Below are positions 2,621-41,690 of a DNA stretch of 46,439 bases, in pieces. The translations under genes were made by a program, and so were the position numbers. Each line of letters begins with the position of its first letter. Positions within the stretch are counted from its first letter, which is position 1. Origin of the DNA: a virus (lineage: Duplodnaviria; Heunggongvirae; Uroviricota; Caudoviricetes). The notes under the pieces were generated by a model. It ran no database searches, was not told the DNA's origin, and saw only the letters and a list, made by a program, of their open reading frames with translations. Location: the IMG/VR virus record IMGVR_UViG_2579779067_000003; one strand, written 5' to 3'.

Positions 2621-3211
2621 ATGTCTCGAATTTTTGCTTACTGTCGGATATCAACGCTGGATCAGACCACCGAAAATCAACGCCGGGAAATCGAAAGTGC
2701 AGGTTTTAAAATCAAACCTCAGCAAATAATCGAAGAACACATTAGCGGCTCAGCAGCAACCAGTGAGCGTCCTGGTTTTAACCGGTTGCTTGCTCGCCTG
2801 AAATGTGGTGATCAATTGATTGTGACAAAACTGGATCGCCTTGGTTGTAATGCAATGGATATCAGGAAAACAGTGGAACAACTGACCGAAACAGGTATCA
2901 GAGTGCATTGCTTAGCATTGGGTGGCATTGACCTGACCAGTCCAACAGGAAAAATGATGATGCAAGTAATTTCAGCAGTCGCTGAATTTGAACGAGACCT
3001 TTTACTTGAACGCACTCATTCCGGGATAGTAAGAGCCCGCGGCGCAGGGAAACGTTTTGGTCGACCACCTGTGTTAAATGAAGAACAGAAACAGGTGGTA
3101 TTCGAACGAATTAAGTCAGGTGTAAGTATAAGTGCCATTGCCCGGGAATTCAAAACCTCGCGGCAAACCATTTTAAGAGCCAAAGCAAAACTTCAGACAC
3201 CTGACATATAA
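2621..3211 (+). CDS. pinQ: Serine recombinase / DNA invertase
   Basis: 196 aa, N-terminal YCRISTLDQ catalytic-serine motif and C-terminal HTH typical of resolvase/invertase family; recalled as PinQ/PinR; convergent with tfa. Confidence 0.85.
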
Positions 3212-3308: not shown

Positions 3309-3884
3309 CTACGGCAGTGCTGGCCATTCAATATCCTGTGCAGTTGACGTATCAACACGGTTCAGCAATACCCGATACTTTTTCCATGCTTCCAGCAACG
3401 AGATTTCTTCCTCCGTTGCAATTTCCAGATCTGCAGCATCCTGAAGCGGCGCAATATGCTCACTGGCTACCTGCATCAGGTTGTTTTTTGTTTCTTCCGC
3501 CTCCCGGATCCGGAACAGTTTTTCTGCTTCCGTATCCTTCACCCAGGCTGTGCCGTTCCACTTCTGAAACTCCCCTTCCGGCGATAACCAGGTAACATTT
3601 TCCGGTAACGGACCGAGTTCAGAAATAAATAACGCGTCGCCGGAAGCCACGTCATAGACGGTTTTTCCCCGATGATCTTCAACGAGATGCCACGATGCCT
3701 CATCACTGTTGAAAACAGCCACGAAGCCTGCCGGAATATCTGGCGGTGCAATATCGGTACTGTTTGCTGGCAGACCTGTATGAGGCGGAATATATGCGTC
3801 ACCTTCACCAATAAATTCATTAGTTCCGGCCAGCAGATTATAAATTTTTATGGTCTGTGGTTGTTCACTCATTCTGAATGCCAT
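3309..3884 (-). CDS. tfaQ: Tail fiber assembly protein (Tfa)
   Basis: 191 aa [37 protein letters not shown]...; start ATG overlaps stf stop (TAATG). Confidence 0.85.
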
Positions 3885-6800
3885 TATGCAAGCCTCACAA
3901 TATAGTTAAATGCGATGTTTTTGACGGTGTTTTCCGCGTTACCAGCAGCGTTAACGGTGATGGTGTGTCCATGTGAGCCAATCGCAACCGAGTGCGTATG
4001 AGCACCAATACCGACAGTATGTGCGTGTGCACCTGCGCTTGCAGCAGTGCCGGACAGTGAGTGGGTATGTGCGCCAGCAGATGATGTTGCATAGTTTTGA
4101 TTATGCACAACAGACAATCTTGTTGATGCACTACCAGCACCGGAGTTAGCACTAGCCGTGTTCACGTTGGCTAGTGAGTGTGTGTGTGCTCCAGCCGAGT
4201 TTGTAGAGCCGCTCACACTGTGTGTGTGTGCCCCGGTGTTATTCGTAGATTTAGTGCCGTAATCAAACGACGATGTGGTTTTCGTACCCAAATCCGTACT
4301 TGATGCGCTGGCGCTGTGGGTGTGCGATTTAATGCCGTCCTGTTCCTGAGACAATACGGCACGACCACTGGCGGGCTTGCCCTTAATCGTCCAGCCACGC
4401 ATATCAGGGATCACGCCTGACGGATAAGCAACTGCAAGTTTCGGGTATGCAGATTTGTCAAAAGTCTGCCCCTGCATCAGGGCATAACCAGACGGAACGG
4501 TATCTGATGGCCACGGAATTGGTGCGCCAACTGGGTAGCTTTCTGGTGGAAGATTTTTCGAGGTATAAACTTCTGCCCAGTCTTCCTCAAAACCATAACC
4601 GTCTCTTGAAGAACGGTAGAACAGACCACCATTTCTGTAATGCGCCTTCATCTGCAGGGTCCGGCAACTTCCGACTCCGGTATAGAAGTTAACCAGAATA
4701 TAGCTGTCGCCAGAGCGGGTGACATTGTAAGCGCCTGATTCGGCATTCCATGGAACGCCACCATCCGCATCGGCATATGTATCCGTTGCCCTTCTGGCAA
4801 AAGCAGCCACATGCGCGGCGGTTAAAGTAATATCTTTGGAACCATCAAACTCAACACCAGAAACCAGTCTTGGCGTTTGCAGCTTTGTTGCTGTTAATGC
4901 ATTACCGTTCAGACTTGCGGACAGTTTGGTTCCAATAACCAGTTCGCCGGTTGCGTTATCAATAGCAAACGGTCTTAATGTATTCCAGCCACCATAAACA
5001 TCACCTTGATTGGTAAGCAGCAGGTAAGTTTTAGCGCCATCATTACGCCATAATGCACCATACTCCCCACCTATCATTCGAATCTGATTACCACCACGCG
5101 CTACAATTTCGTCTGTGGCAAAAAGTTTTTTGCACGACAAGTTATCGTTAACGATTAACGAATGAGACTCATAAAAACCACGCCCACTCTTAAAATCAAG
5201 GATAACGTCCGCCGCGATACATTCAGTCGCCGGATTTGTTGCCCCAAACTTATAGGTCGTATCATTAACAACGAGATCAGCACCAGGTGCGGATATTGAC
5301 AGGCCATCTTCAATAAACGCAAAAACAGGGAAAGCAGCGCCATCAACATAGAACACAGAGCGCAAATCATCGCCCTTATTACTCATCATTATTGAGTGAA
5401 TGGCTCGTTCATTGTTTTGATATTGCCAGAACATGCCATAAGCATAACGCCCCCTGTCAGTCCAGCCACCAGGCATAACAAATCCGTTAAACTCGCAGTT
5501 ATTCATCGGATCGCCTGCGGTTCGCGTTGCCGTGGTGATAATGACTCTTGATGCCAGTTCGCTTACTGAGCCAGCAGAACGCATAACAACAACAGGGTAA
5601 TATTTTCCAGATGTTGCACCTGCAGGAGCGTTAACCCGCACATAACGCATACCACGCTTATCAGCAAAGTCTGTTTTACTGACCGCGTTAATGTTGTTCA
5701 GGAAGCATCCCTTATCGGGTATATCAGCGCCGTTCTGGTCTTTCTGCAGACGTTTCTCTGCATTGTCATAGGCTGATTTTACTGCCTTTGGCGTTGCCGC
5801 CAGCGTTTCAGACGTACTGTTGGTCGCACTGCTGAGCTGTACTATCCCCTTTTTCGTCGTACTTGCATCCTCAAGCGCCACGGCGGATGCAATATCCTCT
5901 GCCCGTTTTGCCGCTGTCTCGGCGCGCGTTGCCGCGGATTCCGCCGTACTTTTGCTCTGTGCTGCCGCCGTCGCACTGCCAGCTGCCTCTGTCGCCTTCG
6001 TGGATGCTGTCGTGGCGCTGCCCTTCGCTGCGGACGCTTGTCTGGTCGCCTCATCTTTTGAAGCAGACGCCGATGATGCCGATGACGCCGCCGAACTGGC
6101 GGACGATGCGGCAGCCGTTTTTGAGGATTCTGCGCTGGTTTCCGACGCTTTCGCGTTCGTCTCGGATGTCTTCGCTGCGGAAGCAGACCTCGCTGCTGCG
6201 CTGGCCTGTTCAGTGGCTTCGCCAGCCTTCGTTGTGGCTGTTGAAGCAGACGATGCGGCACTTTCTGCCGATTTTCCGGCGGCGGTGGCACTGGCTGAGG
6301 CCTGCCCGGCACTTGTTGACGCGGCACTGGCAGACGACGCAGCCGCTGTTTTTGAGCCTGCCGCAGCCGAGGCGCTCTGTCCCGCTGCCGTTTCAGAAGA
6401 CCTGGCGTTTGTCTCAGACGTCTTTGCCGCCTTCGCGGAATTGCCTGCCGCCGTTGCCGAGGAAGCGGCACTACTGGCGCTTGATGATGCGTTCGTTTCT
6501 GATGATTTCGCTGCCTCTTTTGAGGCCGCCGCATCCCGGGCTGAGGTGGCTGCTTCTGACGCCTTCGTGGTCGCGGCGGATGCAGAAGTGGCTGCTGATT
6601 GTTGTGACGCTGCCGCATTCGTTTCTGACGTTTTCGCCGCAGCGGCACTGGTAGCTGCCGCGCTTTTTGAGGACTCTGCAGCAGCAGCACTTTTCGATGC
6701 TTCACTGGCCTTTGTTGATGCCGTTCCTGCGCTGGAAGATGCTGACTGAGCCGACGACGCGGCCTGTCCGGCTGACGTGCTGGCTGCGCGTGCTGAGCCT

Positions 6801-7246
6801 GCAGCATCAGTCGCATGGGTTGCCGCCTCACGTGCTGATGTGCCGGCATCGCTGGCTGACTTCTTCGCGGCTGCCGTGTTCTGTGCCACCGCGGACGCGT
6901 TACGCGCCACCTCTTCCACCATCAGTTCAAAACGGCGCAGTGCCTCAGGACGGGCATCATCCTCCGTCATGGCACCGAGAAAATCATTCAGCGTACCGGG
7001 TCGGGAATCTTCATACACGGTGATGGTCCCGGCATGTGACGGCGGGAATCCCTCCACCAACAGAATAACGCTGTACTGCCCGTACTCAACGTCCATGCTG
7101 TAACGCCCGGCTTCATCCGGATTTTCTGAGGCCAGCGTGTTTACCACCACCGTGGTGCTGTTACGTTTTGCTTTCAGCTGGATTGTGCAGTTCTGTACCG
7201 GTTTTCCTGTGCCGTCTTTCAGTACACCTGAAATCTTTACTGCCAT
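3884..7246 (-). CDS. stf: Side tail fiber protein (lambda Stf-like), with Ala/Ser/Thr-rich repetitive shaft and His-rich C-terminal tip
   Basis: N-terminus [37 protein letters not shown]... matches lambda Stf; ORF-track start at 7252 is GTG two codons upstream of the ATG at 7244-7246; C-terminal repeated GAHTHS motifs. Confidence 0.85.
5840..6900. repeat. Imperfect tandem coding repeats inside stf (Ala/Ser/Thr-rich shaft, motif KTSETNA repeated at least three times)
   Basis: Protein low-complexity repeats seen in translation; generates three long spurious ORFs on other frames/strand (5820..6749, 5842..6849, 5863..6654). Confidence 0.7.
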
Positions 7247-7255
7247 ATTCACCCC

Positions 7256-26999: not shown

Positions 27000-27206
27000 T
27001 CAGTCAACCACCAGGGAATAATCCTTCGTATTCTTATCGTGCTTTACTAACGCGGCCTCAATTGCCCTGAATGCTTCCAGAGATACTTGATGTTCTATAC
27101 ATGCAATTACAACATCCGGGTAACCCATCGAAATGGTGCTATTAAGCATAGTTTTTACACGAACCTGCTCCTGGGAGGGGGCATCAGTGTATTGATCTTT
27201 ATGCAT
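27000..27206 (-). CDS. Hypothetical small protein (cargo gene between terminase and gnsB)
   Basis: 68-aa ORF with ATG start; no family recognised with confidence. Confidence 0.4.
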
Positions 27207-27501
27207 TTTGTCGCTCCATTCGTTTGCTCTTCACTTGCGGCTAAAAATATAACGTCAAATCACTCAGCATGAAAGAGTGAAAGTTTCAGCGCGTTTCCCT
27301 TACATAATCTGTCGTTTGTATTCTCTTCAGGCATACCGGAAAGACTAGGTATTGTCACATAACCAATACCATCGACAATCGAGATTTATATCTATTCGGT
27401 AATGTTTAAATATAACAAAACCCCGTAAAAACGAGGTTTATGGGTAATTTGTATTGTTGAATAGCATCTGATGAGAAATTGATGCTAATACTATAAACAT
27501 G

Positions 27502-27675
27502 CTAGATTAAATCAATCTTGATATCATAGCTTTCAAGACCAGTCATTTTTTCCCGTGCAGTAAACTGGATACTGGTAACTTCTTTCCCGGTCTTTTTCTT
27601 AAGCTCAATGATTTTTTTTGTTATATATTCAGAAATATCTGCTTCTGTTTTTGTTTTTAACTCTTCAATGTTCAT
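27502..27675 (-). CDS. gnsB: GnsA/GnsB-family protein
   Basis: MNIEELKTKTEADISEYITKKIIELKKKTGKEVTSIQFTAREKMTGLESYDIKIDLI (57 aa); track ORF has a 31-codon upstream extension. Confidence 0.8.
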   Translation of the reverse strand: MNIEELKTKTEADISEYITKKIIELKKKTGKEVTSIQFTAREKMTGLESYDIKIDLI

Positions 27676-27847
27676 CATTTCCTCTTTTAGTCTGTTATGA
27701 CTGTCCTGGTACACAGTAGTGTCAATTATATGGAGCAAACGTATAAAAGATAAGATGAAACATCGCAATAATCAACATACGACGGTCTAAATTTCACACA
27801 AACAGATAAAGATGATTATCATTTATTATCAATGCATTAGAATCAAA

Positions 27848-28078
27848 TCAATTCAAGAGTCTCATTGCTGCTTCCAGAATTTCTTCTGAAGTTACATGTC
27901 GATCCGCTGCTACATAAATGACTTTATGATCTCCGGTCAGAGATGGAAACCCTGCGGCCATTACAGTAAGGTGTGTTTTTTCGCCATTTGGATATTCACG
28001 CATGATGGTGTTAACTCCAGTCATCGCTGGCACTACCACTGCTGGTTCAGAGTTAAAAAAAACTATGATTTTTTTCAT
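27848..28078 (-). CDS. ynfN: YnfN-like small protein
   Basis: MKKIIVFFNSEPAVVVPAMTGVNTIMREYPNGEK...; ATG at 28076-28078. Confidence 0.55.
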   Translation of the reverse strand: MKKIIVFFNSEPAVVVPAMTGVNTIMREYPNGEKTHLTVMAAGFPSLTGDHKVIYVAADRHVTSEEILEAAMRLLN

Positions 28079-28349
28079 GATGTTACCGTAGTATGTGAGT
28101 ATCCATCGAATAGATACCAAGCAAAAAAGCTCCCGAAGGAGCCTTCATTTTCACTTTTTTAAATCCAACGACAGACGGCTGGCATTTAAGTATTGTGAAA
28201 TATTATCAAATGTAATCATCATTGATTTACAAAAGATACATTTTGCCCCGAAAGGATTCATGTCAGAAACATCAAAAGATGATGTTCTATACTGGGAACC
28301 ATGACAACACGGGCATCTAAAGTGAATATGGTTTGTAATATTGTCTACC

Positions 28350-28562
28350 TCAAAGCGCCACTACATGAACAGCGGCAGGACCTTTAGGTCCGTTCTCAAT
28401 ACCAAATTCAACTTCCTGATTCTCAGTTAATGTTTTGAAATCGTTGCTCTGAATTGCTGAGAAATGGACAAACACATCTTTGCTGCCATCTTTCGGCGTG
28501 ATGAAACCAAAACCTTTTTCAGGGTTAAACCATTTCACTAAACCAGTCATTTTGTTAGACAT
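28350..28562 (-). CDS. cspI: Cold shock protein CspI (CspA family)
   Basis: 70 aa [38 protein letters not shown]... with RNP1/RNP2 cold-shock motifs; long 5-prime untranslated region upstream. Confidence 0.9.
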
Positions 28563-28925
28563 AATTATTACCTTTTGAAGAAATTAGCCCTTGGGCAGAA
28601 TGGTCCGAAAAAAAATATCAGAGAGAAAAACCAACAAGGAAATCTCAAGAGGTACAAATAATAAAATTATAACAATGACTGCTTCAGATAAATTTGTAAC
28701 AAACCAGAACACCATTAACGCATGATTAACCACCCATAGCAAGGATTACTTTTGTAAAGAAAAACACAGCAATGAAAGAATAGCTTTATTTATTAATAAT
28801 AACGTGTCATTCTGATTAAGACCTTTTATCTTACCCTTAAGATTTCAGGAATTTTGGCTCATGGAAGAGTCCTTTTTATTTAAATTTTACATTCCGCGAT
28901 GTAAATGTTCCGATTTAATATTACC

Positions 28926-30265: not shown

Positions 30266-30481
30266 TTACTCTCCTCTCGCAGCCTTACGCCTGTCTTCTT
30301 TAATCTTGAAATAAAGATTTGTCAGATACGTCAGCATGCCAAATACCAGACTACCCAATACACCTATTGCCGCCCACTGTGAGGGCGTGACTTTATCGAG
30401 CAACTGTAAAAACCAGTAGCCAGCACTGCCTGCAGAGGTGCTGTAGGCGATGCCCGTTGTTAACTTATCCATGGATTTCAT
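30266..30481 (-). CDS. essQ: Holin (phage 21 S-like class II pinholin) with dual-start motif MKSM
   Basis: 71 aa [71 protein letters not shown]; two TM segments; GGAGGTG upstream; track ORF extends 28 codons upstream. Confidence 0.85.
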
Positions 30482-30571: not shown

Positions 30572-30602
30572 AAAAAGAAAAACGCCAGCAATTATTCTGG
30601 CG
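30572..30602 (-). terminator. Intrinsic terminator downstream of the AraC-family gene, upstream of holin
   Basis: Plus-strand A-rich run then CGCCAG-CAATTATT-CTGGCG; on minus transcript hairpin followed by UUUUUCUUUUU. Confidence 0.5.
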
Positions 30603-30671
30603 TAGCTAAAAATATCGTATAATCTTACACTTCAAAAAATAACTTTATAAAATGCCATCACATCATATCTT

Positions 30672-31394
30672 CTAAGAAAATCTTGATAAATATTGGTGCG
30701 GAGGCACACCAAAATATCCTCTAAAAACACTTACAAAATATGATGCATTGTCATACCCGCATATTCCCGCCACCTTGCCGACAGTATGGTTACTGTAGAT
30801 CAATAATCTTTGCGCCATCATCATTCGTTCTTCAAGAATTAATTTACTAAACGATAATCCTTCGTCTTTTAATTTTCTTTTTAACAAACTCTCGCTCATA
30901 TATAATCTTGAAGATATATCACAAAGTCTCCATGACGCTGAGATATCCGAGTGAATAATAGCCTTAACTTTACAACCTAAGCTATTAAGACTTCCGAACA
31001 AAAAACTTTGCACTATTTTCTCTGAAGATAAGACAGCAAGACATGCAAGTGATATTTGATTTCTAACTACATCCACGGTTTTGCTATCACAATTCAAGCA
31101 TGCAACCAAGTTCTTTAACAATGAAAAATCTTCACATTCTACTATCAAGTATGACGGATAAAACCTTCTTACAGAAAAAGGTGAGAGTGTGTAGTTTTTA
31201 AAGAAATCATTAACTGTTTTCTCCTCAACATCTACGATCATTAGATGATCTGTATTTGACGAAAAAAGATCTTTTAAATTGTATTCAATGAGGACAGCAT
31301 TTCCTTTTTTAAACAAAATATCTTCTTTACCAATTCGGACACCAAACGAGTTCAACACCAAAATGATAGAACATATGTATGGCATATTATCCAC
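30672..31394 (-). CDS. AraC/XylS-family transcriptional regulator (AT-rich cargo gene)
   Basis: 240 aa with C-terminal AraC-type HTH region (…MAQRLLIYSNHTVGKVAGICGYDNASYFVSVFRGYFGVPPHQY); AT-rich gene and upstream region. Confidence 0.8.
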   Translation of the reverse strand: MDNMPYICSIILVLNSFGVRIGKEDILFKKGNAVLIEYNLKDLFSSNTDHLMIVDVEEKTVNDFFKNYTLSPFSVRRFYPSYLIVECEDFSLLKNLVACLNCDSKTVDVVRNQISLACLAVLSSEKIVQSFLFGSLNSLGCKVKAIIHSDISASWRLCDISSRLYMSESLLKRKLKDEGLSFSKLILEERMMMAQRLLIYSNHTVGKVAGICGYDNASYFVSVFRGYFGVPPHQYLSRFS

Positions 31395-31791
31395 CTGATA
31401 TCATTGGGGTTACACCAGGTAAGTATAGGTGGAAAATCAATATTCGCCAGTTCAACAATAAGGAAAATCTCATTGCATCACAACTATAAAACCATGTGTT
31501 TAACTCACAAAAAACAAATCATTAAACTAATCTGTTATATTATAATAGCTGCGTGCAATAATAATATTATATGCTCTTAATATTCACTTGAAATATCTTC
31601 ATATAAAAACAGATTGAATAAAATCTTTTGGGGCTGGTATGTTTACCAACATTAAATTGCATCTCAATGTTTTCTTTAGCGTGAACAGGATTTTTATACA
31701 AACTGACACTATGGGCATCATAGCGTAGTTTTTACGATTGTAAATATCCTGCATACAGGAACTCATCACTTTCAGATGATATCGCATACAG

Positions 31792-32751
31792 TTAATTCAC
31801 CATCAGTCTTAGAGCCAGTTCTTCCGGATAGGGATCGAAGTAATTCTGTGTAAGCAAGTAATCATTAGGATACTCACCCAGATAATGCTTCAGCAGAGTC
31901 AACGGCGCAAGAAGAGGCAATGTGCCAAAGCGATAGTTAAGTATAACCTCGCTCAACTCTTTACGCTGGCGTGTACTTAAGTAATTACTAAAATACCCCT
32001 GTATATGCATCAGCACATTCGTGTGATTTTTACGTGATGCTGGTTTTCTGAGAATCGCCATCAGATTATCACGATACACCTCAAAGTATGATTCAAGGTC
32101 CGCCCACTCGTGTATTGCAGCCACAAATGGTCCCATATCTTTATAGCCTGCCTGGCTATGCGCCAACAACTGAAGCTTATAACGACTATGAAAAGCTAAT
32201 AACTCTCTTCTTGATAATTTCTCCTTGTAAAGATGATTGAGCTCATGCAAAGCAAAAACTCTTTCAATAAAATTCTCACGAAGCACTGGATCATGTAATC
32301 GCCCATCCTCTTCAACCGGTAGCCAGGAAAACTTTTCCATCAAAGTGCTCGTAAATAGTCCCACTCCATCTTTACGACCTCGATTACCATTTTCATCATA
32401 GACACGCACGCGCTCCATGCCACAGCTGGGAGATTTAGCACAAACCACAAACCCCGATACATCCTTTAATTTGTCCATATAAGAACGACTAAACTCTGTC
32501 ATTCTCTCTGTCACATCCTCATTCTGGTCGTGGCTGAAACACATCCGTATATTTCCTTGCTTCGAGCGCACAAGTCGTAGAGCAGGACGCGGAACTGGCA
32601 GCCCTATAGCCATTTCCGGACATACTGGTCTGAATGTTACCCATTCCACTAATTTGTCCATTAAAAAGTCATCTCTTTTGTGACCACCATCAAAACGAAC
32701 AGCAGAACCGCCCAAACAACCGCTGATCCCAATCACAGGTTTTTTTATCAT
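31792..32751 (-). CDS. DUF523/DUF1722 two-domain protein (TudS/YbgA-like)
   Basis: N-terminal GISGCLGGSAVRFDGGHK motif typical of DUF523, conserved Cys at about 12, 44, 105; C-terminal half YbgA-like. Confidence 0.65.
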   Translation of the reverse strand: MIKKPVIGISGCLGGSAVRFDGGHKRDDFLMDKLVEWVTFRPVCPEMAIGLPVPRPALRLVRSKQGNIRMCFSHDQNEDVTERMTEFSRSYMDKLKDVSGFVVCAKSPSCGMERVRVYDENGNRGRKDGVGLFTSTLMEKFSWLPVEEDGRLHDPVLRENFIERVFALHELNHLYKEKLSRRELLAFHSRYKLQLLAHSQAGYKDMGPFVAAIHEWADLESYFEVYRDNLMAILRKPASRKNHTNVLMHIQGYFSNYLSTRQRKELSEVILNYRFGTLPLLAPLTLLKHYLGEYPNDYLLTQNYFDPYPEELALRLMVN

Positions 32752-32943: not shown

Positions 32944-33468
32944 ATGAAGTTATGGCCTGTGTTGACTGGCATTGCACTCTCTTTCACTCTTATAGCATGT
33001 AAGGCCCCGACACCACCTAAAGGTGTGCAGCCGATTACAAATTTTGACGCCAACCGCTACCTCGGAAAATGGTATGAAATAGCTCGCCTCGAGAACTGGT
33101 TCGAACGTGGTCTGGAACAAGTCAGCGCTACTTATGAAAAACGGAACGACGGAGGGATTCGCGTACTTAACCGTGGATACGATCCAACGAAAAACAAATG
33201 GAGCGAGAGCGAAGGTAAAGCATACTTTACTGGAGATACTAAAACTGCAGCGTTGAAAGTTTCGTTTTTTGGCCCCTTCTATGGTGGCTATAATGTAATC
33301 AAGCTGGATGATGAGTATAAGTATGCTCTTGTCAGTGGTCCGAACAGAGAATACCTATGGATTCTGGCAAGGACCCAAACTATTCCAGATAATGTAAAAG
33401 CAGACTATGTGCGTACCGCTCAAAAGTTGGGATTCAATGTCAATGAACTATTATGGGTTAAACAATAA
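32944..33468 (+). CDS. blc: Bacterial lipocalin Blc-like outer membrane lipoprotein
   Basis: 174 aa; signal peptide with lipobox LIAC; NFDANRYLGKWYEIARLENWFERGLE and SFFGPFYGGYNVI motifs as in E. coli Blc. Confidence 0.85.
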   Translation: MKLWPVLTGIALSFTLIACKAPTPPKGVQPITNFDANRYLGKWYEIARLENWFERGLEQVSATYEKRNDGGIRVLNRGYDPTKNKWSESEGKAYFTGDTKTAALKVSFFGPFYGGYNVIKLDDEYKYALVSGPNREYLWILARTQTIPDNVKADYVRTAQKLGFNVNELLWVKQ

Positions 33469-33496: not shown

Positions 33497-33523
33497 AAAA
33501 AAACCAGCCTTTGGGGAGGCTGG
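33497..33523 (-). terminator. Candidate tR-prime terminator downstream of Q
   Basis: Plus-strand A7 (33497-33503) then CCAGCC-TTTGGGGA-GGCTGG; on minus transcript hairpin followed by U7. Confidence 0.55.
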
Positions 33524-33582
33524 CTAAATCAGGAAACAAGCTGTTATATGATAATAACTACGTTGCGATTCCAACATTTAAA

Positions 33583-33623: not shown

Positions 33624-34001
33624 TTATTTCGAACAATCAGCATCCATCTCCAATCGGAGATCCAACACCATCAGCATGCCCTCCACTACGCCCTCAGCTT
33701 TCTGGAGCATCCTGCCAACCCAACAATCAGATCGCCCATGCTTACGTGCAAGCGCCATAAAAGTCATGCCGCCGACATAATAGTCCACCAATAAATCATG
33801 TAAATCGCTGTTGTTTTTTTTCAGGCGAGCCATACATTCACAAATGATCATCGCGTCATCGTCACAGCATTGCGGACGAGATCTTACTTTTGAAGGAATT
33901 AATCCCTTAAAACCGGCGGCAATGGACGACCAGGTCACATCTTCATGATTATTAGCCGCCCATGCCCCCCAACGCTCAAGAACCATCTGAATATCACGCA
34001 T
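33624..34001 (-). CDS. quuQ: Antitermination protein Q (small Phage_antitermQ type)
   Basis: [60 protein letters not shown]...; ATG at 33999-34001; track start is TTG extension. Confidence 0.75.
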
Positions 34002-35894: not shown

Positions 35895-36050
35895 TTACTC
35901 CTCAGGTTCGTAAGCTGTGAAGACAGCGACCTCCGTCTGGCCGGTTCGAATTCGTACCTCGCAAAGGTCTTTCCTCGTTACCAGTGCCGTCACTATGACG
36001 GTTAAACAGATGACGATCAGGGCGATTAACATCGCCTTTTGCTGCTTCAT
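35895..36050 (-). CDS. hokD: Hok-family type I toxin
   Basis: MKQQKAMLIALIVICLTVIVTALVTRKDLCEVRIRTGQTEVAVFTAYEPEE (51 aa); track ORF with 19-codon upstream extension may correspond to the overlapping mok frame. Confidence 0.85.
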   Translation of the reverse strand: MKQQKAMLIALIVICLTVIVTALVTRKDLCEVRIRTGQTEVAVFTAYEPEE

Positions 36051-36280
36051 AGCCTGCTTCTCCTTGCCTTTCGGCACGTAAGAGGCTAACCTACATGTGT
36101 CTAGCATGAAATTGGCCTCAGATTAATGTTAAGCGTCTTGCAGGACGCGTAATGTTAACTGGGGCTTTTCTCTATCTGCCTTTGGTGTTCATGCCTGAGA
36201 CAGATAGCCTCAAGCACCCACGGAAACTTTACTAAAGGAGTTATAGCTTTTCCAGTAGTCTCAACATATTCACATTGCTA

Positions 36281-37837
36281 TTACCTATCAAACAACGGAT
36301 GTATTACAAAATCTCTCTTCATATCAGTAATATCCAAATTAGGTTTATCAAAAGATGAATATATAATTAAAGATGCTGTTTTCCTTATGCCAACCACGCC
36401 TACGACGAACCAGACTTTAAGTAACTCCTCAAAATTCATCAATATTTTTGTATGTTGATCATCCTCTTTAACTACAGTCAATCTATCAAGTAAATGCTGC
36501 GATATATCATCTTTTACTGCTTGTCCTATGTTTGAGACTGTAAAATCAGAAAATGAAATCAAGGAAAGCACATCCAAATATTCTTCGATAAACGGATATA
36601 TGCTTTTCCATTCTGTAACCAAAGCTCTCTTTCTGGACGAATAAAATTTCTCTTCGGCAATTAACACAATATTTTCATTCATGTTAACCATACCATCGCA
36701 CTCAGAAAGACATATATTTACGAAATTAATTGCATCTCTAGGCCTAAGCATTGTTCTGTCAAGGATATAATCATCTGCTCCAATACCTTCAACTGTAAAA
36801 TTAAAAATATCCTTCATTAATACAGACTTATTTGATTGATATCTATTTTTAACCAAATGGTTAATTCTAGCATCAATAATCTCTCTTATTTCCGTTTTAT
36901 TCCATGATATGGAATATATTAAAGATTGATCTTTCTCATCCTGCCTTAAACTACTTTTATAAATTCCCATTAAAATATCTGTTCTTATTGATATCAGAAC
37001 CTTAACCGACTTTATATCTAATAATTCTCGAAAGGCCTCAAGAAGAGCATTAATAAAGTCATATCTGATGGCGCTCGTGCTTAACCAAGATTTATCTAAA
37101 TCATCGATACTGATTACTATTCTAACCTGGTTTGAGTCAGCGAACTCCTCTTTAAGTATTTTAATAAGTTCTTTTTGTTTAAAAAGAAGTTCACGACTCA
37201 CATAACTTGAAGTTTCTGATTGTATTTTGGCTGTATCAGAATTAGATATTTTACCACCCACACCAACAGCGGAATTTCCGAGTTTGAATGACAAATCACT
37301 TTCAAGCTTGTTACTTATTTCAATGAGCGCTTTATCATTGAAGAAATTTTCTTTAAATTGTTCAATATAATCATTCGCAACTTCTGGTTTATACGGTTTC
37401 TTCTTACCACCAATAAGATCTTTAATTTCCTCAAAAAAGCTTTGATAGGAAGAACGATAAACGGCTGGTATAACTTTCATAAGTAATACATGCAGCCATA
37501 ACGATTTATAAAACCCACGTAAATCTATCCCTTTCGAGATCAAATCAGATATAAACACATTGTTATTAATATGTTCAAATATCGTATTTTCTGCCTCTAT
37601 TGTGTCATGCAGCTTAATATTTCCTTTGTCTAATATTTTTTTAAGCAACGCAGACTTACCGCTTCCTGTTCTTCCAACAATAATTCTTCTTGTAAAATCA
37701 GGATTCTTCTCAGTAGAGTCAAAATTCACAATACCTTTAAAAACATTGGACTCATAAAAACAAGCATCAAGATAAGAATCAGTTTCCGCCTCTAATTTTC
37801 CAATCTCATCATTATTTCTGAATTTATAGGCATTCAT
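36281..37837 (-). CDS. AT-rich P-loop NTPase, KAP/PifA-like by motif (candidate phage-exclusion protein); function unproven
   Basis: 518 aa; Walker A GRTGSGKS at about residue 55, Walker B-like IVISIDDLDK about 180 residues later, RPRDAINF arginine-finger/sensor-like motif; sampled 60-nt lines are roughly 25-30 percent G+C versus about 45-50 percent in tail genes (hand counts). Confidence 0.6.
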   Translation of the reverse strand: MNAYKFRNNDEIGKLEAETDSYLDACFYESNVFKGIVNFDSTEKNPDFTRRIIVGRTGSGKSALLKKILDKGNIKLHDTIEAENTIFEHINNNVFISDLISKGIDLRGFYKSLWLHVLLMKVIPAVYRSSYQSFFEEIKDLIGGKKKPYKPEVANDYIEQFKENFFNDKALIEISNKLESDLSFKLGNSAVGVGGKISNSDTAKIQSETSSYVSRELLFKQKELIKILKEEFADSNQVRIVISIDDLDKSWLSTSAIRYDFINALLEAFRELLDIKSVKVLISIRTDILMGIYKSSLRQDEKDQSLIYSISWNKTEIREIIDARINHLVKNRYQSNKSVLMKDIFNFTVEGIGADDYILDRTMLRPRDAINFVNICLSECDGMVNMNENIVLIAEEKFYSSRKRALVTEWKSIYPFIEEYLDVLSLISFSDFTVSNIGQAVKDDISQHLLDRLTVVKEDDQHTKILMNFEELLKVWFVVGVVGIRKTASLIIYSSFDKPNLDITDMKRDFVIHPLFDR

Positions 37838-41631: not shown

Positions 41632-41690
41632 TTTCTGGTGACGTTTGGCGGTATCAGTTTTACTCCGTGACTGCTCTGCCGCCGTTTTTA
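41632..41690 (+). ncRNA. dicF: DicF small regulatory RNA with 3-prime stem-loop and U-run
   Basis: TTTCTGGTGACGTTTGGCGGTATCAGTTTTACTCCGTGACTGCTCTGCCGCC followed by GTTTTT; matches the 53-nt DicF sequence as I recall it (GGCGG...CCGCC stem). Confidence 0.8.

Follow-up and report, generated by a model that had tools for sequence, protein, structure and literature searches.

The regulator gene and its relatives

Based on analysis of IMGVR_UViG_2579779067_000003, a stretch of 46,439 nucleotides that is called the window below, we found that positions 30672-31394 on the minus strand hold a real and intact gene for an AraC-family regulator, which is accessory cargo of a lambda-like Escherichia coli prophage. 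A preliminary description made from the sequence had proposed an AraC-type helix-turn-helix (HTH) at the C terminus of the encoded protein, and this was borne out: Pfam HTH_18 matched residues 161-237 (E 3.1e-16, 59.9 bits against a cut-off of 33.6) and HTH_AraC matched as well (E 6.1e-11, 42.6 bits against 26.6), both clearing their curated thresholds and lying far beyond chance. With a C-terminal segment of about 100 residues, two HTH motifs and a profile match, the protein has the features by which the AraC/XylS family is recognised.

The product had been described as 240 residues long. The open reading frame (ORF) finder did return a minus-strand ORF of that length at 30672..31394, starting at GTG, but this codon (31394-31392) falls within a Shine-Dalgarno sequence, AGGTGG (31396-31391), whereas an ATG at 31385 is placed 5 nt 3' of it. 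Because the GTG sits inside the ribosome-binding site, translation probably starts at the ATG and gives a product of 237 residues. The same start and length are used in RefSeq for WP_001146314.1, with the product name "helix-turn-helix domain-containing protein". The gene and its ribosome-binding site are as follows.

30672..31385, minus strand: coding sequence (CDS) of the AraC/XylS-family regulator, 237 residues, with the maximal ORF reaching GTG 31394 (Pfam, RefSeq, AlphaFold, and the ratio of nonsynonymous to synonymous substitution rates, dN/dS)
31391..31396, minus strand: Shine-Dalgarno sequence AGGTGG, 5 nt 5' of the ATG; (A/G)GGTGG is kept upstream of P0027 and PatE

The CDS has 33.5% GC (30.7% at third codon positions) as compared to 48.6% for the whole window, and only 3.9% of segments of 714 bp are equally AT-rich. 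The 406 bp upstream (31386-31791) have 31.5% GC, in agreement with the AT-rich gene and long AT-rich upstream region of the preliminary description, which had also rightly seen the gene as prophage cargo: it lies within a full set of lambdoid genes, with the Q antiterminator gene on one side of it and the holin gene on the other. The protein belongs to phrog_1450 (E 8e-97), and all three proteins of the cassette described below fall in PHROGs of which the function is not known.

The AlphaFold model (predicted local distance difference test 85, predicted template modelling score 0.75) shows a DNA-binding domain of seven helices, joined by a helical linker to a beta-rich N terminus, and the layout is a beta-rich N-terminal domain plus linker at about residues 1-135 followed by a double HTH at about residues 136-237. 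With Foldseek, Rns, CsvR and ToxT matched over the full length (E 2e-11 to 1e-7), at a template modelling (TM) score of approximately 0.45 and with a differing domain orientation, and the DNA-binding domain of GadX (3mkl) superposed at a root-mean-square deviation of 1.3 A with 40% identity. In a profile search the match to these proteins likewise extended to the N-terminal domain.

Comparator proteins were extracted from annotated genomes and placed in a neighbour-joining tree. Full-length alignments spanned residues 1-235 (E 1e-32 to 1e-76), and the window protein was 48% identical to PatE over 237 residues, 38% to PsrA (full length, with the ECs_1087 ORF extended to 237 residues), 35% to the plasmid fimbrial-operon regulator P0040, 33% to GadW, 30% to AppY and 29% to both AdiY and YdeO; the value for GadX (41%) refers to the DNA-binding domain only and that for YbcM (23%) to a partial alignment. 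In the tree the window clade, which includes alleles at 85%, 76% and 60% identity, was sister to the PatE clade, followed by PsrA, then by GadW and AppY, and then by YdeO. The GadW/AppY/YdeO/PatE/Psr relatives have in common the N-terminal motif MxxxCS(I/V)I and the recognition helix SES(L/I)(L/I)K, and the window protein belongs with this subgroup by full-length homology, by the motif and by its length class of about 240-255 residues. On these sequence grounds the protein is a two-domain AraC/XylS factor of the prophage PatE/Psr clade within the GadW/AppY/YdeO group, and it is none of PatE, PsrA, YdeO, GadX or the Rns-type regulators. It had been stated earlier that no named regulator could be assigned, and this still holds: the best NCBIfam model was YdeO, aligned over the full length with 112.3 bits under a cut-off of 348, and the other equivalog models also stayed far below their cut-offs (GadX 89.9 against 500, HilD 92.5 against 354, HilC 74.1 against 423). 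The comparison suggested at that time, with PatE and with the Psr and Rns/AggR/PerA families, was well chosen, as the protein falls among the prophage regulators of the PatE/Psr clade.

Base contacts were mapped by aligning the window protein with the sequence and the base-contact residues of MarA. PatE has exactly the same recognition helix, SESLLKRKL, and the mapped helix-3 contacts (S, K, R) agree as well. Additionally, Lys169 of the window protein aligns with K170 of AppY, and the K170E substitution in AppY abolishes DNA binding (PMC10057817).

PatE was identified as the 247-residue regulator at the right end of Sakai Sp1/CP-933H, identical in strain FRIK2069, and is listed in reviews as z0321 on OI-8, a "putative regulator (prophage CP-933H)" (PMC10877973, PMC2907692). 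Both proteins have the CS(I/V)I motif near the N terminus, and both genes are AT-rich and prophage-borne, with a TTGGCA-like/TATACT promoter element and a GGTGG Shine-Dalgarno sequence. However, patE is found at the right end of a remnant prophage integrated at thrW, after tail-fibre and pin genes, and not between Q and the holin gene, and PatE is 10 residues longer at the C terminus and has other helix-6 contacts. With 48% identity, another prophage and another integration site and position, an orthologue of PatE was rejected as an identification. Activation of acid resistance has been demonstrated experimentally for PatE (PMC10877973), whereas for the window protein it would follow by analogy.

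For PsrA we used ecs1087 in Sakai Sp4, after PMC13502914. The naming differs between sources: in reviews psrA is z1789 on OI-50/CP-933N, of which the Sakai counterpart is Sp6 at potB/potC, and the 2026 paper gives the name psrA to ecs1087 in Sp4 (PMC13502914), so the equivalence of EDL933 and Sakai loci is not straightforward. Sp6 was rejected as the location of psrA, as it holds no AraC gene. The RefSeq CDS of ECs_1087 has 195 residues, and the frame is open upstream to a protein of 237 residues that starts with MVVVCSVI and matches the N termini of all the relatives, and translation probably begins upstream of the annotated position. Like the window gene, psrA is positioned 3' of a Q antiterminator gene in a lambdoid prophage, and the two proteins belong to the same AraC subclade. 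PsrB has been reported to be 90% identical to PsrA; the direct comparison made here was with PsrA. The definition of the Psr family (Tree et al. 2011) was taken from a review (PMC10877973). The window protein agrees with it in being AraC-like and found exclusively on prophages. The Psr genes are, in contrast, described together with loci for effectors of type III secretion systems (T3SS) and with pch regulators, and neither T3SS effector genes nor pch genes were annotated in the window or in a near-identical prophage. Six additional Psr homologs are attributed to Tree et al. 2011 in the review (PMC10877973), and the window clade may already be among these unnamed proteins. P0040 (265 residues) was considered as a PsrA/PsrB candidate and rejected, as it is encoded in a plasmid K88-like fimbrial operon.

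AppY, GadW and YdeO resemble the window protein in length class, two-domain layout, full-length identity of 29-33% and the AT-richness of their genes (31.7% GC for appY), and AppY is also prophage cargo and has the conserved DNA-binding lysine. The identity is nevertheless much lower than to PatE, appY is found at the end of DLP12 beside ompT, and gadW and ydeO are chromosomal. Rns, CsvR and ToxT gave the best full-length matches to the predicted fold. They differ in their identity of about 20%, the TM score of approximately 0.45, another predicted domain orientation and their nature as pili and toxin regulators from plasmid or island loci. An activator of the Rns/AggR/PerA type was rejected because the HMMER matches to Rns and CsvR were limited to residues 99-236 (E approximately 1e-17) at about 20% identity, and because of the phage late-region context; the direct comparison was made with Rns and CsvR. 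The ligand residues H20 and R75 of Rns could not be aligned to the window protein. In a literature search we found no paper that names the accessions of the protein or the three-gene cassette.

Cargo slot, distribution and selection

The window represents a complete Qin-type lambdoid prophage and extends from a truncated ydfJ (a major facilitator superfamily transporter) at the left to the integrase gene at the right. After ydfJ come pinQ, the tail fibre, Lom, J and tail genes, and then the capsid, portal and terminase genes; the remainder comprises a cold-shock cluster, the lysis genes, Q, the replication and immunity genes (with dicB and DicF), an exonuclease, an excisionase and the integrase. 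Read along the minus strand, Q is followed by a hairpin with a T-run, a blc-like gene on the opposite strand, a TudS/YbgA fusion gene, the AraC gene, a terminator and then the genes for the holin, YdfR, lysozyme and Rz. The features of this slot are listed below.

30266..30481, minus strand: class II holin (EssD/S21-like; Pfam), the first lysis gene and the downstream edge of the cargo slot
30572..30603, minus strand: intrinsic terminator, ACGCCAG-loop-CTGGCG then TTTTTCTTTTT, placed after the AraC stop codon and before the holin gene; found at 66 of 80 viral loci
31386..31791, minus strand: AT-rich intergenic region from the YbgA-like gene to the AraC gene, 31.5% GC, with an insertion of about 54 nt relative to other alleles
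31422..31450, minus strand: proximal promoter-like element, -35 CTGGCG, 17-nt spacer, -10 TATACT, an invariant alignment block, in 68 of 80 viral loci
31717..31744, minus strand: distal promoter-like element TTTACA-16-TATGAT, 10 of 12 consensus positions, invariant in the alleles of 82-100% nucleotide identity, in 73 of 80 viral loci
31792..32751, minus strand: 319-residue fusion of a TudS-like part (2-thiouracil desulfurase, DUF523) and DUF1722/YbgA (Pfam; PHROG 3275)
32944..33468, plus strand: Blc-like outer-membrane lipocalin lipoprotein (Pfam; NCBIfam Blc subfamily, 312.6 bits against a cut-off of 267)
33502..33525, minus strand: terminator-like strong hairpin and T-run, about 100 nt 3' of Q (scan)
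33624..34001, minus strand: late-gene antiterminator Q (PF06530, PHROG 79), the upstream edge of the cargo slot

The content of the slot between Q and the holin gene varies among prophages: it is nmpC in DLP12 of K-12, a CAAX protease gene, psrA and transfer RNA (tRNA) genes in Sakai Sp4, and nanS-p in Sakai Sp6. No tRNA genes were found in the window, whereas psrA is followed by such genes. By its position in this slot, its orientation, which is that of Q and the lysis genes, and its conserved terminator and predicted promoter, the AraC gene corresponds to a moron of the lambdoid late region. The hairpin at 33502-33525 is a candidate tR' and may also serve as the blc terminator on the other strand. 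Promoter-like hexamers were also seen next to this terminator about 100 nt after Q, and these do not fix the exact position of pR'. The blc-like and ybgA-like genes are divergent, with 192 bp between them. PADLOC defence models gave no match for the AraC gene or its neighbours.

The -35 and the -10 of the proximal element occupy 31450-31445 and 31427-31422, respectively, and the leader would accordingly be about 30 nt long. The block reads TGGC...TTTCCACCTATACTTAC, followed by the Shine-Dalgarno sequence and the ATG, and (T)TGGCA/CTGGCG, a spacer of 17-18 nt and TATACT are conserved from the window gene through the 60% allele to PatE. The -10 context, CTATACTTA, has a C at -13 and a C at -8, which according to Hengge and co-workers are reportedly typical of sigma-S-dependent promoters. 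The proximal -10 thus appears similar to sigma-S promoters, and the element is predicted to act as a promoter. The distal element overlaps an inverted repeat (31706-31726) and may be a second promoter. The intrinsic terminator is invariant among alleles of which the flanks vary.

The leader has approximately 54 extra AT-rich nucleotides at about 31566-31640, which are missing in the 89% and 82% alleles and in both isolated phages that carry the cassette. Small ORFs in the leader (31567-31787) were rejected as genes, as they are broken by indels between alleles. In minimum-free-energy folds a conserved upstream CCACCT was seen to pair with AGGTGG, as in an anti-Shine-Dalgarno hairpin or RNA thermometer. 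This was rejected as well: the z-scores of -0.6 to -2.2 were not significant in comparison to shuffled sequence, the pairing is lost in the 60% allele, and the block is better read as a TGGC -35 and a TATACT -10 conserved to PatE.

Among 5426 complete E. coli genomes, the segment 30400-32000 was present at a coverage of at least 80% in 866, and the AraC CDS at this coverage and in one piece in 996 (about 18%, or roughly one in six). The identity of the CDS was at least 99% in 330 records and 80-95% in about 700, and the proteins form clusters at approximately 99%, 85%, 76% and 60% identity. The preliminary description had referred to such regulators in pathogenic E. coli, but the strains that carry the gene are for the most part commensal, animal or environmental and not specifically pathogens. 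In a scan with one genome per species, no close relative was found outside E. coli except on one short contig. This 3.2-kb contig, JARKOR010000151.1, carries the 85% allele and is binned as a metagenome-assembled genome of Candidatus Nanosynbacter; presumably it is a mis-binned E. coli phage fragment.

All contexts in which the AraC gene was seen are lambdoid prophages or phages. The order Q, blc (on the other strand), ybgA, araC, holin was found in 80 of 80 IMG/VR contigs wherever the flanks were present, in a prophage at ybhC (89%-nucleotide allele), in another prophage (82% allele), and in the isolated phages 1H12 (Jouyvirus) and IdasGreatGrand. The three cassette genes were inseparable in all of the 76-100% alleles examined. 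The 60% allele directly follows a Q gene of 250 codons, with no blc or ybgA upstream.

The dN/dS between pairs of AraC alleles was 0.20-0.26, at a synonymous divergence (dS) of 0.33-0.60, and as this ratio is about 0.2 these alignments indicate that purifying selection has acted on the protein while its alleles diverged considerably. The neighbouring genes ybgA (dS 0.05-0.29) and blc have diverged less than the AraC gene, and therefore the cassette is mosaic. Most copies look unbroken, with about 996 genomes as compared to about 1033 that have a match at an identity of at least 80%. In other genomes the AT-rich cassette is a target of insertion sequences (IS): we observed IS3 in the AraC CDS, IS3 in the leader just downstream of ybgA and IS1 truncating the AraC gene, and IS1 interrupts blc in the prophages with the 89% and 82% alleles.

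Proposed function and alternative explanations

The explanation that we favour, with slightly less than even confidence, is that the lysogen produces the protein, probably in stationary phase, as an AraC/XylS activator that works in trans, most probably on promoters of the acid fitness island. The gene would be a moron in the slot between Q and the holin gene of a Qin-like lambdoid prophage. In the lysogen, transcription would most likely start from its own conserved promoter, with the -10 CTATACTTA, and on this view the gene would be expressed in stationary phase and would lie in the sort of AT-rich DNA that H-NS silences. In Stx phages, the Q-modified RNA polymerase reads through to the stx genes. 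As the AraC gene has the orientation of Q and the lysis genes, and a promoter-like region and a terminator follow Q, the Q-modified polymerase from the late promoter pR' should likewise read through terminators across the cassette when the prophage is induced. The protein would bind AT-rich host promoters with its two HTH motifs and activate transcription, most probably at gadE and hdeAB, and the outcome would be lysogenic conversion to a higher acid tolerance. It is from homology and context that we infer this role in lysogenic conversion, as well as promoter use, control by sigma-S and H-NS, late read-through from pR', and which DNA the protein targets with what phenotype.

PatE, PsrA/PsrB and AppY have all been found to activate gadE/hdeAB or the AR2 acid-resistance system (PMC10877973, PMC10057817), and in the case of AppY the activation of gadE is direct (PMC10057817). 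Since PatE, PsrA, PsrB and AppY, which are nearest in the tree or in context, all activate gadE and/or hdeAB, acid-fitness promoters are considered the most probable targets of the window protein. Cargo of this kind is also suggested by PsrA and the 60% allele, which are likewise encoded 3' of Q. In EDL933, PatE (z0321) was 6-fold RpoS-dependent (PMC2907692).

Several observations weigh against a stationary-phase activator of acid resistance. The highest identity to any characterised regulator is 48%, and it is from such homologues that the acid-resistance activity would be transferred to the window protein. A search of 1.84 billion representative proteins with the N-terminal 135 residues gave only 14 matches at E <= 1e-3, and this domain appears narrowly distributed, fast-evolving and very divergent in its sequence. 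Two of the seven contacts mapped from MarA differ from PatE, both of them in helix 6 (Ala in place of Val, Ser in place of Tyr), and therefore the targets may differ. The proximal -35, CTGGCG, is weak in the window allele (3 of 6 consensus positions), and in a generic scan promoter-like sites were not enriched in the AT-rich region (13 as compared to 11.3 expected from shuffled sequence). Additionally, the IS3 and IS1 disruptions of the gene or leader indicate that its loss is tolerated.

A trans-acting host regulator with another regulon, such as envelope, motility, biofilm, fimbrial or anaerobic genes, is unlikely, yet it is the alternative to which we give most weight. AppY also controls hya, nhaR and motility (PMC10057817), P0040 with 35% identity is part of a plasmid K88-like fimbrial operon, and both the helix-6 contacts, which differ from PatE, and the very divergent N-terminal domain speak for it. 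However, the four nearest characterised members converge on gadE/hdeAB, and PatE has the same recognition helix 3.

A rather remote alternative is a local regulator, which would act on the two partner genes of its own cassette (Blc-like lipocalin, TudS/YbgA-like) and might respond to a lipid. The inseparability of the three genes in the 76-100% alleles is in line with it, the 192-bp divergent region between blc and ybgA could hold operator sites, and the model is similar in fold to the fatty-acid-binding proteins Rns and ToxT. Yet neither blc nor ybgA accompanies the 60% allele, PatE or PsrA, and the deeper divergence of the AraC alleles suggests mosaic linkage and not co-evolution. No shared motif was identified either, and the Rns ligand residues could not be mapped.

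More doubtful still is silent and effectively neutral cargo that is kept off by H-NS. The very low GC content and the recurrent IS3/IS1 insertions in the CDS and leader would fit this, and the related psrA is under silencing linked to Hha/H-NS (PMC13502914). However, a dN/dS of about 0.2 across deep alleles argues against neutrality, as do the conserved promoter-like, Shine-Dalgarno and terminator elements; most carriers have an unbroken gene, and the gene is kept in viable isolated phages. A phage life-cycle regulator of lysis timing, late genes or superinfection has hardly any probability: the gene lies directly upstream of the lysis cassette in late-operon orientation, but the slot is variable (nmpC in DLP12 of K-12, other cargo in Sakai Sp6 and Sp4), there is an intrinsic terminator ahead of the holin gene, PADLOC gave no match, and the characterised homologues act on host genes.

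AppY, PatE, PsrA and PsrB are the best examples of phages that are wired into the acid-stress and virulence networks of E. coli, and all of them were studied in K-12 or O157:H7. The window protein represents a distinct and unstudied sister clade of PatE that is present in about one sixth of the complete E. coli genomes and, additionally, in viable temperate phages. If activation of gadE/hdeAB is true, the acid tolerance of many non-pathogenic lineages would be set in part by the prophage they carry, and if the protein has no measurable effect it would be another H-NS-silenced passenger. The prevalence is notable and the protein is a useful target for functional work, yet the result would not surprise a specialist. 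The fixed trio with a lipocalin and a TudS-like protein in a late-operon leader would also offer a tractable model of a multi-gene moron. A wider and decidedly improbable reading is that the three genes form a single lysogenic-conversion module in the slot that stx holds in Shiga-toxin phages, in which the AraC protein, with its predicted Rns/ToxT-like fold, would sense a lipid or envelope-derived signal and drive a stationary-phase programme over the cassette and over host genes for acid and envelope stress.

Other observations in the window

A protein of 518 residues with a P-loop NTPase domain (36281-37837, minus strand; Pfam KAP_NTPase, weakly nSTAND1; RefSeq "Sll1717 family") is encoded beside hokD/sok in an island of 30-33% GC. 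It resembles a defence or abortive-infection gene, yet it had no PADLOC match. An AT-rich cluster related to cold shock (27000-28710; cspI, ymcF, ynfR, ynfN, gnsB) is located downstream of the lysis genes, with an Rfam match to the cspA thermoregulator at 28323-28708. The other Rfam matches were the IS009 RNA (3343-3541, minus strand), the sok antitoxin RNA by hokD (36045-36219, minus strand) and the DicF small RNA by dicB (41633-41684, plus strand). The pinQ invertase gene adjoins tail-fibre and tail-fibre-assembly genes (2621-3211, 3309-7252), which is the usual layout for host-range switching.

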